A stretch of DNA of 64,000 nt from Escherichia coli (GTDB taxonomy: Bacteria; Pseudomonadota; Gammaproteobacteria; Enterobacterales; Enterobacteriaceae): assembly GCF_051903065.1 (NCBI RefSeq), contig NZ_CP178438.1; one strand, written 5' to 3'. Both the position numbers and the translations under genes were made by a program. Below the pieces are notes generated by a model that ran no database searches, was not told the origin of the DNA, and saw only the letters and a list, made by a program, of their open reading frames with translations. This document shows positions 4,751 to 43,271 of the stretch, piece by piece (position 1 is the first letter of the stretch; the number at the start of each line of letters is the position of its first letter).

Positions 4751-4861
4751 ATTTGAAAATGCACGGTAATTCTGAAATGCAAAAAATCAACCAAACCAGC
4801 GCAATGCCTGAAAAAACTGACGTTCACTGGAGTGGTCGGTTTAGCGTTGCACCAATGCTCG
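4751..4861. repeat. attL-side copy of dusA 5' sequence (imperfect direct repeat)
   Basis: Alignment by eye with 43161-43271; similarity ends after GCTCGA (4856-4861). Confidence 0.7.
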
Positions 4862-4880
4862 ATAGGATGTACCGTTTTTG
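4758..4880 (+). pseudogene. dusA: displaced 5' fragment of dusA at the left prophage junction
   Basis: ATG at 4758 encodes MHGNSEMQKINQTSAMPEKTDVHWSGRFSVAPMLD then diverges and stops at 4878-4880; about 80 percent identical over ~110 bp to the 5' end of the intact dusA at 43161-43271. Confidence 0.75.
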
Positions 4881-4962
4881 AAAAACAACTAGTTATACAC
4901 TTTGTGGGAGCCTATTGGGAACCTGTTATTCTTAGAAAGCATCATTTGCTCATCACTTCAAT

Positions 4963-4991
4963 TGACCATGGTTAAAGCCAGCTATAAACTT
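4963..4991 (+). promoter_or_regulatory. candidate sigma70 promoter for the attL-proximal cargo cassette
   Basis: TTGACC (4963-4968), 17-bp spacer, TAAACT; a second TTGACA follows; the cassette has its own RBS (GAGG) before ATG 5117. Confidence 0.35.
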
Positions 4992-5116
4992 GACAAACGA
5001 GGTAACTGGTTGCTTAGGCCCAAGTGGGCACACCATAAGAAGCTCGTGTTGGTGATGAAGCAACCCATGAAGTATCGAGAATAATTATAAAGTTCACTAT
5101 CTTTGAGGTTTCTTAT

Positions 5117-5689
5117 ATGTTTTGCGAAGAAAAAGTAGCTCAAATGGCTGCATACCTACTTCTTAAGCGAGGTGGGCGCATGGCATATCTGAAATTGATG
5201 AAGTTGCTCTATCTGTCTAACCGCCAGTCGATTTTGAAGCATGGCAGGATGATCGGCGAAGATAGCCTTTACTCTATGAAATTTGGACCAGTCATGTCGA
5301 ATACGCTGAACTTGATTCGCGGTAAGGCTGAAGGCATTGGTGACTACTGGTACAACTTGATAGAGACGAACGGGCATAATGTATCGTTGCGTTCAGATCC
5401 GAGGGAAATGGATGCAGACGAGGTCTTTGATGAATTGAGTCGTGCAGATATCCGGATTTTAGATGAAATCTATTCTCGGTATGGGCATATGAACCGATTT
5501 GATCTCGCAAATATGACGCATTTAGAAAGCGTTTGTCCAGAGTGGCACGATCCTGGCAATTCTCGTAAGCCTATAGACCTGAAAGAAATGCTGATCAGTG
5601 AGGGTAAAAGCGAGGATGAGGCTAATCGCATAATTGGCAAAATGGAAGAATCTCAGAAACTTAAGGAATTTTCTTTGCAATTATCATGA
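5117..5689 (+). CDS. DUF4065 / Panacea-domain-like protein (SocA/PanA-like putative antitoxin or immunity component)
   Basis: 190 aa; N-terminal AAYLLLK..., KLMKLLYLSNRQ and FGPVM motifs resemble the recalled Panacea/DUF4065 signature; stop overlaps the next start (ATGA). Confidence 0.55.
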   Translation: MFCEEKVAQMAAYLLLKRGGRMAYLKLMKLLYLSNRQSILKHGRMIGEDSLYSMKFGPVMSNTLNLIRGKAEGIGDYWYNLIETNGHNVSLRSDPREMDADEVFDELSRADIRILDEIYSRYGHMNRFDLANMTHLESVCPEWHDPGNSRKPIDLKEMLISEGKSEDEANRIIGKMEESQKLKEFSLQLS

Positions 5690-6105
5690 CGGATTATCAG
5701 CCATACAGGAAAGGAACTGTGCTTGCCCCAACTGGGCCATGCAATCATCTTCATGTGATTTGTAATGATCCTGTTTATTACCCCGTTAACGATTGTTATT
5801 GTGTTTTAGTTGTTAATATTTCTAGTATCAAGGATGGTGTCCCCCACGATCCGTCTTGCGTCTTGAATTCTGGTGATCATCGCTTTATCAAGCATCCAAG
5901 TTATGTTGTTTACGCTGAAGCTATAATTTGGCGAGTGGATAACATGGTTAGAAAGCAGCGATCGGGTGAGATTTCTGTTCATGATGATATGCCAGAAGCT
6001 ACATTCAATAGAATTCTGGACGGTTTTGATATCTCTGATGAAGTTACGCCAAAGAACCTTAAATTTAAAAATAAATATTGCGTATCATCTATTGATGATG
6101 AGTAA
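5686..6105 (+). CDS. hypothetical Cys/His-rich protein, candidate toxin/effector partner of the DUF4065 protein
   Basis: 139 aa, translationally coupled to the upstream gene; no family recognised; clustered Cys/His (GPCNHLHVICNDP...CYC...). Confidence 0.5.
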   Translation: MTDYQPYRKGTVLAPTGPCNHLHVICNDPVYYPVNDCYCVLVVNISSIKDGVPHDPSCVLNSGDHRFIKHPSYVVYAEAIIWRVDNMVRKQRSGEISVHDDMPEATFNRILDGFDISDEVTPKNLKFKNKYCVSSIDDE

Positions 6106-6144
6106 ACAACAGGAATTGTTTCGGTATAACTTCAGGAGTTTTCT

Positions 6145-6318
6145 ATGGAAGATCAAAAAGCAACCAAGCCACAGGTTAAGTTCGACACAATGAAAGCATT
6201 CGCAGGTATGGGTGCTGCTGTTGAAGTTCTGATGAAGGCTGCTCCTAATGCGTTCACTCACGCTACTGTCTCTGGTAAAGAGCAGCAGGGTAAGCTTCGT
6301 CGTCGCAAAGCAGCATGA
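6145..6318 (+). CDS. small hypothetical protein (57 aa), not in the ORF track
   Basis: ATG 6145 preceded by AGGAG at 6134-6138; MEDQKATKPQVKFDTMKAFAGMGAAVEVLMKAAPNAFTHATVSGKEQQGKLRRRKAA; stop 6316-6318 then terminator. Confidence 0.5.
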   Translation: MEDQKATKPQVKFDTMKAFAGMGAAVEVLMKAAPNAFTHATVSGKEQQGKLRRRKAA

Positions 6319-41528: not shown

Positions 41529-41671
41529 TTTAAAAGCAATTTAAAGAGTTATTTGTCTAATGTTGGAAGCCGCAGCCACGTCGTATGCAAGAACGTGCTG
41601 CGGCTGGCTGGCGAACTTTCGATAGTGCGAGTATTGAATGATTTCCAGCCGTTACCGATTTTACGTGTTAA

Positions 41672-41920
41672 TTAGTGAACAAACCACTCGTCAGCAGATT
41701 CCCAGGTATCTTTCAGAGTCTCCTGAACAAAAGTTTTTGCAGAATCCTTATCTGCGGTGCGTGTAACAGAAAGGCCATCGTTGCTGGTGGCTTTTACGAT
41801 CACCTCTACATCGTCATAACGTTTACTGATGCGTCGGGTTAATTCTTCCTTTAACGCATCCACAGCACCGGTTGGCATTTTAGTCATTTTTTCTTTGGCT
41901 ATGCAGATTTCAATACGCAT
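41672..41920 (-). CDS. DinI-family protein
   Basis: 82 aa; [11 protein letters not shown]...[10 protein letters not shown] matches the recalled DinI pattern (MRIEVTIAK...ETWESADDWFV). Confidence 0.85.
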
Positions 41921-41933
41921 AAAAGTCCCTCTA

Positions 41934-41979
41934 TACTGTGTTTGTATACAGTATTATTTTTAACTGTATAGATAAACAG
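41934..41979. promoter_or_regulatory. two LexA (SOS) boxes upstream of the dinI-like gene
   Basis: TACTGTGTTTGTATACAGTA (41934-41953, perfect CTGT-N8-ACAG palindrome) and CTGTATAGATAAACAG (41964-41979). Confidence 0.8.
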
Positions 41980-41981
41980 TG

Positions 41982-43079
41982 TCAAGAGGCCTTATTTCTG
42001 CTCCTTTGGAGCTCTTCAAAACGATTATGTAAAGATTTCGGATACAGTTCGGTATATACCTGCCATAGCACGTTTAATGAACGATGCCCTGTAACCTGGG
42101 CGACTTCCTCAATACTAAAACCAGCCTCAAATAAGCGACTTGCCCCTTCTCTACGCAAATCATGGTATCGCAGATCTTTAATACCTAATTTGCTTCTTAC
42201 CCTCTGGAATCCCGCAGTAACAGAAGTGCTGTTATATGGAAAAATGAATTCTGATTTTTTGGGTTGTCGTTGGACGATATCCCAGGCTTCCCCAAGCAAG
42301 GCTACTTTCATATGGTTGCCTTCCTTTTTACGTGGATCTTTCCTGTCTCTTACGAGTATGGATTTTTGTTCCTGATCGAGATCCTCCCATCGTAATCGGC
42401 ATACTTCACCGATTCGCATACATGACCACACAGAAAATTTGAGGATATCAACGAACGGAATTTTTGAGCATTTATGTGTAGATCGTTGTTGAAGACCTTC
42501 AATGAGCATGTCCAGTTCATCAGATGCCGGTCTACGATTACGACGATTTGATTTACCAATTAAACCAAGTTTAAGTAGATATGGACGAGCGGCTTTTGCT
42601 GGGTTTGATGTGTAATTAATTCCATATACAGGTTTGGCAGCATCCAGAACACTGCCAAGATAACTAACATCGTGGCTAACTGTAGCTGGACCTGCACCAG
42701 CGTTGTTTCTTAGCCTGCAATGTTCAATTACGTCATTTTCTGTCAGTTCAGATAGTTTGAGCGCGGAGACGTCACTATCCATAAGCAGTTCCAGCACATA
42801 TCTTTTAGTACGGCCTGCTTTACCTCCGGCATTTGGGTCATTTAAATATTTGTGTAGTAAGTCACGGACTGTAAGTCCGTCAACTGCATTTGATGATGGA
42901 ATGCCATATAGATCTAATTCCATCACTTTCTGTGTGCCCCATGTTTTGGCATGAGCATGTTTAGGGAATGTTTTACTTTCCCTGTAAGTGATAACACCTT
43001 TTTCTTTGATAATCACATTACAGCGATAGCGTGGTGTGCCATCGGATTTTAGTCGTTTCTCTATGTTATAGTATGCCAT
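41982..43079 (-). CDS. tyrosine integrase (dusA-targeting type)
   Basis: 365 aa; C-terminal ..HDLRREGASRLFEAGFSIEEVAQVTGHRSLNVLWQVYTELY with R..H..R..Y-type catalytic residues; abuts the dusA 5' end. Confidence 0.9.
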   Translation of the reverse strand: MAYYNIEKRLKSDGTPRYRCNVIIKEKGVITYRESKTFPKHAHAKTWGTQKVMELDLYGIPSSNAVDGLTVRDLLHKYLNDPNAGGKAGRTKRYVLELLMDSDVSALKLSELTENDVIEHCRLRNNAGAGPATVSHDVSYLGSVLDAAKPVYGINYTSNPAKAARPYLLKLGLIGKSNRRNRRPASDELDMLIEGLQQRSTHKCSKIPFVDILKFSVWSCMRIGEVCRLRWEDLDQEQKSILVRDRKDPRKKEGNHMKVALLGEAWDIVQRQPKKSEFIFPYNSTSVTAGFQRVRSKLGIKDLRYHDLRREGASRLFEAGFSIEEVAQVTGHRSLNVLWQVYTELYPKSLHNRFEELQRSRNKAS

Positions 43080-43160
43080 TACACGACCTCGTTATTTCGG
43101 GTTCCCATAAAACGTGGGAACCTGTGCGGGAACCTAACGCGAGAAAAATAGCCTGAAATG

Positions 43161-43271
43161 TTCAAAAATGCACGATAATCATGAAACACAAAAAATTAAT
43201 CAAACCAGCGTGATGCCTGAAAAAACTGGTGTTTACTGGAATTCTCGGTTTAGCATTGCTCCTATGCTCGA
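43161..43271. repeat. attR-side dusA 5' sequence (imperfect direct repeat of 4751-4861)
   Basis: Alignment by eye; this copy is fused in frame to the dusA body. Confidence 0.7.

Follow-up and report, generated by a model that had tools for sequence, protein, structure and literature searches.

A prophage in the 5′ end of Escherichia coli dusA with a phage-derived replacement of the gene start

The window, that is, the whole 64,000-nt stretch of E. coli DNA analysed here, almost certainly carries a temperate phage that integrated site-specifically into dusA by means of an integrase of a known family, with the host and phage 5′ ends of the gene swapped. The arrangement is ordinary and already documented, including for integrases that are 99% identical. 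Farrugia et al. 2015 described the family, Balasubramanian et al. 2019 reported integration and excision, and Durand et al. 2021 added a new promoter, a new N-terminus and RdfN.

Results

Repeats and junctions

Two copies of the dusA 5′ end flank the element (4756-4872 and 43165-43281), aligning over 117 nt at 81% identity with a spacing of 38,409 in a repeat search. Blastn recovers the same pair without gaps (83.2% over 107 nt, E=1.2e-27), and the second-best match within the window reaches only E=0.14. Both searches corroborate the imperfect direct dusA repeats of ~110 bp noted in the preliminary description. A four-way comparison of attL, attR, attB and attP revealed an 8-bp identity core, ATGCTCGA, at 4855-4862 and 43264-43271 that bounds the switch between host and phage DNA. 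The crossover had been predicted at 4856-4868 / 43262-43272, and alignment with K-12 places the true interval within that prediction. The core falls within the APMLD(W) codons of dusA, a conserved region, and the element is flanked by semiconserved direct repeats.

TGCTCGA is presumably the 7-bp overlap at both junctions; a core of 7 bases has been described for phage 1720a-02 (PMC6328086). The half-sites in Table 1 are putative and were read off attP, where the dyad TCCTA-TGCTCGA-TAGGA occurs. As a substitute for the 21-bp att logo in Farrugia Fig. 5, we used the attB sequence given for 1720a-02 (PMC6328086); by our own count from that sequence, 17 of 19 positions agree with K-12. The names attL and attR are arbitrary at this prophage, and PMC6328086 gives attL to the int-proximal junction. 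A tRNA-type attachment site is ruled out, since a tRNA search found no tRNA genes.

Table 1 Features of the prophage and its junctions with dusA
Feature	Position	Strand	Remarks
Prophage DNA	4863..43271		38,409 bp including one core copy; from repeat spacing and from homology ending at 4862 (empty sites) and 43271 (phage attP)
Int-distal junction (attL of the preliminary description)	4851..4867		Putative host half-site ACCAA, presumed overlap TGCTCGA 4856-4862, putative phage half-site TAGGA; four-way att comparison
Int-proximal junction (attR of the preliminary description)	43260..43276		Putative phage half-site TCCTA, presumed overlap TGCTCGA 43265-43271, putative host half-site CTGGA; four-way att comparison
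Stranded native dusA 5′ fragment	4759..4881	+	Equals K-12 dusA nt 1-104
Phage-supplied replacement dusA 5′ end	43168..43271	+	Codons 1 to about 35; same sequence in free phage genomes
Chimeric intact dusA	43168..44205	+	345 codons; residues 31-345 equal K-12 DusA
Candidate arm-type Int-binding repeats, two (GGGAGCCT, GGGAACCT)	4906..4923	+	Int-distal arm of attP; conserved in mEp460, SKA5 and EC4115
Candidate arm-type repeats, three GGGAACC (one inverted, two direct)	43100..43134		88-bp int-dusA′ spacer
Panacea/SocA-like antitoxin-domain protein	5117-5689	+	PF13274 E=3.7e-19; junction-proximal cargo
139-aa protein overlapping the Panacea-like gene	5686-6105	+	Junction-proximal cargo; no known family
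PrtN-family protein, candidate recombination directionality factor (RdfN type)	6366..6674	-	PF11112 E=5e-23; phrog_1300 'excisionase' E=8e-40
CI-like repressor (HTH and S24 LexA-like peptidase)	11037..11729	-	
Early operon, divergent from the CI-like gene	11827-18413		O-like replication protein, MTase, RusA, Q antiterminator
Late genes, overall	21991..41528	+	ORF lengths agree with PGAP and SKA5 annotations
Terminase small and large subunits	21991-24224	+	
Portal, protease, HK97-type capsid	24418-27507	+	
Contractile tail and Mu-like baseplate	29691-39468	+	
Tail fibre and assembly protein	39472-40889	+	
DNA invertase	40965-41528	+	
DinI-like protein	41672..41920	-	NF007893 E=2e-20
dusA-specific tyrosine integrase, 365 aa	41982..43079	-	PF00589 E=1.5e-20; catalytic R222, H306, R309, H332, Y342

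Native and phage-borne copies of the dusA 5′ end

The unoccupied locus of K-12 has one dusA 5′ end only. It is identical to the left copy as far as 4862 and, beyond that point, to the DNA that follows 43271. In empty-site genomes the homology with the left flank breaks off exactly at 4862, and in phage attP sequences homology ends at 43271. The left copy is the native end up to 4862, as expected of the displaced host 5′ end that had been placed at attL. The reverse assignment, with a native right copy and a phage left copy, is contradicted by the K-12 alignment and was rejected.

The left ORF runs from an ATG at 4759 to a TGA at 4879-4881 and encodes MHGNSEMQKINQTSAMPEKTDVHWSGRFSVAPMLDRMYRF. 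It consists of host DNA to 4862 followed by six phage-encoded codons and the stop, with the native dusA upstream region still attached. The stranded fragment of 40 codons described earlier is thus real, but its coordinates of 4758-4880 were one base off. PGAP labels the equivalent stub in three other genomes 'tRNA-dihydrouridine synthase, incomplete, missing C-terminus'.

The copy beside int is fused in frame to the intact dusA body, as had been claimed. Replacement and native 5′ ends (~104 nt of coding sequence, ~82% identical) differ by nine amino acids and five synonymous codons. All nine residue differences from K-12 DusA fall within residues 3-30, and residues 31-345 are unchanged. The beta-1 strand motif RFS(V/I)APMLD is kept in the phage copy while the remaining N-terminus drifts. 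The same 5′ end occurs in free phages, in line with the earlier proposal that the DusA N-terminus is phage-supplied. Free phages mEp460 and SKA5 have an attP that is exactly the join of 43271 to 4863, and the SKA5 annotation shows a 123-nt 'tRNA-dihydrouridine' ORF at this place.

Integrase, directionality factor and arm-type repeats

The RHRH and Y catalytic residues of the integrase were placed by alignment to XerA 5hxy and then checked. Its gene adjoins the dusA 5′ end in divergent orientation, with 88 bp between the int start at 43079 and the dusA ATG at 43168. The protein is identical at 360/365 positions (99%) to the integrase of the EC4115 dusA island, which is listed in Farrugia Table S1 (PMC4482086), and at 356/365 to that of mEp460, named as a family hit in the same paper. 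The integrase of 1720a-02 shares 361/365 residues (98.9%). These identities place the enzyme in the dusA-associated integrase (DAI) family of Farrugia 2015 and agree with the earlier view that the architecture is typical of dusA-targeting integrases. A full-length integrase occurs in 728 of 5,426 complete E. coli genomes (~13%), and among the matches listed all full-length integrases (23/23) adjoin an intact annotated dusA.

No xis-like ORF lies beside int, where the neighbor is dinI. A gene for a PrtN-like protein is found on the opposite side of attP from int and could encode the directionality factor; a dusA-specific element depends on RdfN to excise (PMC8409611). The coordinates given for the PrtN-like gene are those of the longest ORF, and the true start is perhaps downstream.

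GGGAACC-type repeats may serve as arm-type sites to which Int would bind, and those in the spacer are identical across the aligned mEp460, SKA5 and EC4115 sequences. Five of the 13 window copies of GGGARCC(T) lie within ~170 bp of the core; the motif was picked after inspecting the region, and its enrichment over the whole window is not significant by itself.

Gene content and related phages

The phage modules are complete, and gene lengths agree with those of isolated phages. No identical record turned up in the E. coli collection, where the best matches are D53-1 (99.2% over 4700-29000) and 23CRST027 (99.8% over the left flank). PADLOC, run on ten early and cargo proteins, matched only two methyltransferases. 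Domain and family searches and PADLOC found no family for the 139-aa partner of the Panacea-like protein. An Rfam scan returned sraL as the sole match, and a search for inverted repeats for the DNA invertase gave none that were convincing.

SKA5 (OR670062) is the closest deposited phage genome, collinear over ~70% of the prophage at 92-99% nucleotide identity and with an int-att module at 98%. The segments uncovered in the alignment, where SKA5 and the prophage differ, are the immunity and lysis regions, the head genes and the tail-fibre tip. Both SKA5 and mEp460 (NC_019716) share the dinI-int-attP module and the attP sequence with the prophage. mEp460 is also alike in much of the early region, whereas its tail genes are of the lambda type.

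The head-to-baseplate genes are 97-98% identical at the nucleotide level to those of the Shigella phages SfV, SfI and SfII over 24003-39769. This similarity covers 78% of the segment 24001-43271, with a collinear HK97-type head and Mu-like tail and baseplate. The homology ends at 39769, ahead of the fibre tip, invertase, dinI and int. Because it stops before the int region, the integration module is unrelated to that of the Sf phages; the int/att module is of the mEp460/1720a-02 type. SfV, SfI and SfII insert at a tRNA-Thr site, and their gtr O-antigen genes are absent from the prophage in the window; no glucosyltransferase-type gene is annotated in the related prophage.

Upstream region of the chimeric dusA

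A standard sigma-70 scan of 42800-43400 returned no sites, and a relaxed scan of 42950-43175 gave at best 7-8 of 12 matches, for the most part within int. Upstream of the native dusA 5′ end the scans found only 9/12 matches, at 4558-4586 and 4711-4741. No promoter can be named from the scan scores for either the chimeric or the native dusA. A promoter for the chimeric gene could lie only in the 88-bp int-dusA′ spacer or on the antisense strand of int. As 38 kb upstream is all phage, the layout suggests that the dusA promoter is phage-supplied and that the chimeric gene would be transcribed from phage DNA, in keeping with experiments on other dusA elements (PMC8409611).

Discussion

Proposed integration and excision

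The insertion almost certainly arose at codons 33-35 of E. coli dusA by site-specific recombination. The phage combines an SfV/SfI-like myovirus body, an mEp460-like early region and an int-attP module of the mEp460/1720a-02 type. Strand exchange by the tyrosine integrase took place inside a presumed 7-8 bp overlap, (A)TGCTCGA, common to attP and attB. Since attP sits within a phage-borne mimic of the dusA start, integration swaps the 5′ ends: the phage copy joins the host dusA body in frame, and the native end, along with its upstream DNA, is left 38.4 kb away as a stub. Excision would require Int and the PrtN/RdfN-type factor coded across attP and would restore wild-type dusA, with junctions expected to read TCCTATGCTCGATAGGA (attP) and ACCAATGCTCGACTGGA (restored attB).

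Other elements also lie inside a gene and provide a substitute end, such as SXT in prfC and e14 in icd. The prophage shows no structural difference from the dusA elements of Farrugia et al. 2015 (NAR 43:4547, PMC4482086), in which a tyrosine recombinase gene is adjacent to and divergent from dusA, the insertion lies in the dusA 5′ end with imperfect direct repeats on both flanks, and the element gives a new dusA 5′ end, the original ending up at the far junction. The cargo and the phage body are different, which that paper reports across the family. Circular excision restoring wild-type dusA was shown for elements of A. baumannii and P. protegens and for 1720a-02.

For phage 1720a-02 (Phi-stx2dact), an Stx2 phage integrated in Citrobacter rodentium dusA, sequencing showed an insertion 100 bp into the gene, a 7-base core, an in-frame phage dusA′ and a regenerated attP (PMC6328086). 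Its int-attP module is 97% identical at the nucleotide level to that of the prophage, with the same insertion point and an in-frame phage dusA′ ORF, and its core, TCGAGCA, is the reverse complement of TGCTCGA. In contrast to this lambdoid Stx2-converting phage, the prophage in the window lacks stx and has a contractile tail of the SfV type.

IMEVchUSA3 and related SGI1-like Vibrio dusA islands (PMC8409611) likewise combine an intragenic insertion and substitute end with a PrtN-type RDF across attP from int. The new 35-residue N-terminus and new promoter of these elements were shown experimentally in E. coli K-12, and the N-terminus has the same length in the prophage. These are, however, mobilizable islands under IncC AcaCD rather than phages, and their integrases and RdfN are divergent from those of the prophage.

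Alternative explanations

We give next to no credence to the idea that both dusA-like copies are native host duplications between which the remaining DNA arrived independently. Only the presence of two copies speaks for it. A single copy is present in K-12 and most E. coli genomes, their left-flank homology breaks off precisely at 4862, and the right-hand copy sits beside int in free phage genomes; the K-12 empty-site alignment and the phage attP sequences refute this reading. It is considerably less far-fetched, if still unlikely, that the layout is as described but that the prophage is now fixed and non-excising, for example through a hidden regulatory or att defect. Many E. coli genomes hold only remnants at the dusA site (10.9 kb in EC4115, ~8.5 kb in strain 81), so decay there is common, and the nearest genome copy, at 99.2%, falls short of full identity. 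Yet no major ORF is truncated, int and the PrtN-like gene are intact, both copies of the core are perfect, and the closest deposited phage genome has nearly the same int-att module. The prophage may still be able to excise.

Integration could also have restored the frame while leaving dusA silent or strongly under-expressed in the lysogen, in effect a knock-down, which we consider somewhat less probable still than a fixed prophage. A consensus promoter is absent upstream of 43168, the 88-bp spacer is mostly taken up by GGGAACC repeats, and integration of IMEVchUSA3 in E. coli significantly reduced dusA expression (PMC8409611). But dusA was still expressed in that experiment, the chimeric ORF is annotated as an intact dusA in 23 of the 23 full-length matches listed, and the conservation of the beta-1 residues amid N-terminal drift suggests selection on the fused product.

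Implications

Because the spacer is filled by GGGAACC repeats and a consensus promoter is undetectable, we speculate that the DusA level, and with it tRNA D20/D20a, is lowered or tied to Int/RdfN occupancy in carriers (~13% of E. coli), and that the orphaned native dusA promoter reads into the Panacea-type toxin-antitoxin cassette. This is a long shot; if true, the read-through would amount to the capture of a host promoter by a phage moron.

The main value of the result lies in annotation. The prophage boundaries are now set to the single base (4863-43271), and the origin of the stub accounts for the short pseudogene, a 'partial tRNA-dihydrouridine synthase', in the PGAP annotation of the dusA locus. 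The N-terminus of DusA in such strains is phage-derived.

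Chromosomal location and the two dusA copies

The locus follows the E. coli chromosomal gene order, as judged from the ORF layout of the window and the annotation of near-identical genomes: lexA, dinF, yjbJ, zur and a DUF2713 gene precede 38.4 kb of phage genes, followed by dusA, pspG, qorA, dnaB, alr and tyrB, onward to soxSR and ghxP. The DUF2713 gene, which in K-12 is a frameshifted pseudogene, is intact here upstream of dusA. A small ORF between tyrB and aphA matched no NCBIfam family; the equivalent place in strain 81 holds an IS1 and a 125-aa hypothetical gene. The Hfq-binding sRNA sraL (ryjA) is the sole Rfam match in the window.

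A repeat search of the window identified a single outstanding direct repeat, 4756-4872 versus 43165-43281 (117 nt, 81% identical, spacing 38,409), all remaining repeat families being no longer than 35 nt. With the left region as query, blastn on the window gave a 107-nt match without gaps (83.2%, E=1.2e-27; runner-up E=0.14). Both agree with the preliminary description, which had proposed that ~110-bp imperfect direct repeats of the dusA 5' end flank the element and whose coordinates are right to within a base or two. As it also stated, the left copy is stranded after 40 codons and the integrase-adjacent copy is fused to an intact dusA body.

Features of the prophage and its surroundings
Feature	Position	Strand	Remarks
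DUF2713 gene	3373-4395	+	340 codons
Left dusA copy	ATG 4759, stop 4879-4881	+	40 codons
GGGA(A/G)CC, other arm	4906-12; 4917-23
Panacea/SocA-like gene and overlapping partner	5117-6105	+	PF13274 in the first gene only
PrtN-family protein	6366-6674	-	PF11112, E=5e-23; phrog_1300 'excisionase'
DNA methyltransferase	14426-15112	+
DNA methyltransferase	19020-20072	+	350 aa
Tail-fibre region	39472-41528
DNA invertase	40965-41528
Tyrosine recombinase (int)	41982-43079	-	365 aa; PF00589, E=1.5e-20
GGGA(A/G)CC, int-side arm	43100-06 (inverted); 43116-22; 43128-34
Right dusA copy, chimeric dusA	ATG 43168 to 44205	+	345 codons
ORF between tyrB and aphA	50028-50570	-	180 aa
sraL (ryjA)	59460-59600	-	153 bits

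Crossover and origin of each copy

A three-way alignment with the prophage-free locus of K-12, the check suggested in that description, places the crossover. The left copy is native dusA, identical to K-12 from upstream of the ATG through 4862, and the dusA body beyond 43271 matches the native one exactly. The left flank (query 3900-4900, megablast) is present in 4,371 of 5,426 complete E. coli genomes; homology stops at query position 963 (window 4862), within an annotated intact dusA in most of the matches listed. SNPs on either side, read across the four att sites, confine strand exchange to ATGCTCGA (4855-4862 / 43264-43271, dusA nt 97-104). The attP dyad TCCTA-TGCTCGA-TAGGA may comprise two core-type half-sites around a 7-bp overlap, a reading that agrees with the 7-base core common to all att sites of Stx2 phage 1720a-02, which inserts 100 bp into dusA (PMC6328086).

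Attachment sites
Site	Left flank	8-bp core	Right flank
attB	GTTGCACCA	ATGCTCGA	CTGGACGGAC
attP	ATTGCTCCT	ATGCTCGA	TAGGATGTAC
Left junction	GTTGCACCA	ATGCTCGA	TAGGATGTAC
Right junction	ATTGCTCCT	ATGCTCGA	CTGGACGGAC

Sequence comparison assigns the right-hand copy to the phage. Ten deposited phage genomes share the dinI-int-dusA' segment (41600-43271), which includes the phage-supplied dusA 5' end, at 96-98% identity, and the homology breaks off at 43271. In phages mEp460 and SKA5, dusA' runs straight into the sequence found at window 4863 onward, which makes the 43271|4863 join their attP. A 123-nt ORF across attP of SKA5 was named 'tRNA-dihydrouridine' by its depositors. The deposited circular record of phage Lys8385Vzw (MT225100, 2064-2079) has a tandemly duplicated core (ATGCTCGAATGCTCGA), probably an artefact that arose when a prophage sequence containing the core twice was circularised.

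At the int-proximal junction of the remnant in O157:H7 EC4115 (11590-11630 of the EC4115 locus sequence used), the three diagnostic SNPs that immediately precede the core are of host type (...TTTAGCGTTGCACCAATGCTCGA), all within 16 bp of it. The switch between host and phage sequence is located further upstream there than it is in the window; the two repeats may have undergone gene conversion, or the attP allele may have been a different one.

Integrase, excision factor and candidate arm sites

The preliminary description recognised the architecture of dusA-targeting integrases, and the comparisons bear this out. Residues R222, H306, R309, H332 and Y342 of the window's integrase were identified by alignment with XerA (5hxy). 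This integrase is identical at 360/365 positions to that of the EC4115 island (NC_011353.1 5179273-5190127; Table S1) of Farrugia et al. 2015 (PMC4482086), who defined the dusA-associated integrases and named phage mEp460 as a hit. The 1720a-02 integrase is identical at 361/365; that phage carries an in-frame 'dusA'' ORF and regenerates attP in vivo in 0.44% of junction reads (PMC6328086). A full-length integrase occurs in 728 of 5,426 complete E. coli genomes, adjoining an intact annotated dusA in 23/23 of the full-length matches listed.

The PrtN-family ORF sits across attP from int. Excision of a dusA-specific element depends on RdfN, a PrtN-type protein that acts as its directionality factor, and int and rdfN are characteristically opposed across attP (PMC8409611). 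Five copies of GGGA(A/G)CC lie within ~170 bp of the core, with only eight in the rest of the 64 kb. The clustered copies are conserved in mEp460, SKA5 (one substitution) and EC4115, and we propose, post hoc, that they are candidate arm-type Int sites.

The chimeric dusA and its expression

Compared with K-12 DusA, the chimeric protein has nine substitutions, every one of them in positions 3-30; from residue 31 to residue 345 the two are identical. Eight of the nine changes fall in residues 3-26, and the phage copy retains RFS(I)APMLD, the beta-1 strand considered essential by Farrugia et al. 2015 (PMC4482086). The preliminary description had both N-terminus and promoter supplied by the phage. 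The N-terminus stands, given the right copy in mEp460 and SKA5; the promoter is deduced from layout, as promoter scans upstream of chimeric dusA found no convincing sigma-70 site. The 38 kb upstream of 43168 is entirely phage DNA and the nearest genes, int and dinI, lie on the opposite strand, so the promoter must be phage-borne if chimeric dusA is transcribed in the lysogen. We infer such a promoter here. An element-borne promoter, with reduced expression, was shown in E. coli K-12 for a dusA island from Vibrio (PMC8409611), and element supply has been summarised as general (PMC13136901). Partial dusA knock-down in the lysogen is a live possibility.

Prophage body and cargo

The prophage looks complete, because its major genes all have lengths seen in annotated relatives: a repressor with S24 peptidase domain, O-like replication protein, Q antiterminator, lysis genes, terminase, portal, protease, capsid, sheath, tube, tape measure, baseplate, fibre and invertase. 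From the head genes to the baseplate genes, as far as 39769, identity to Shigella phages SfII, SfI and SfV is 97-98%, and the early region resembles mEp460-like and SfV-like phages. The closest single genome, SKA5, covers ~70% of the prophage. The same prophage occurs in 27 complete genomes (at least 80% coverage over 24 kb), and remnants are also common (e.g. EC4115, strain 81).

A DNA invertase ends the tail-fibre region, in which no convincing inverted repeats flanking the fibre genes were found. SKA5 has an additional fibre gene set in opposite orientation that is absent here; the invertible segment may be reduced or fixed.

Just inside the left junction, a gene for a Panacea/SocA-like antitoxin-domain protein overlaps by 4 bp one for a 139-aa protein that matched no Pfam, NCBIfam or PADLOC family. 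The pair is a candidate PanA-type toxin-antitoxin moron. It points the same way as the native dusA promoter that was orphaned by the insertion, and a sequence scan found no terminator-like site between 4881 and 5117. In mEp460 and EC4115 a different gene fills this slot. Two genes for DNA methyltransferases are also present in the prophage; the second of them follows the Q antiterminator and precedes the lysis genes, where Stx phages carry stx.

Taken together, the observation is confirmed and its interpretation supported. The architecture, integrase family, core, replacement N-terminus and excision factor are all already published, in part for integrases 99% identical to this one. A known arrangement was recognised correctly, which helps annotation and adds little that is new.
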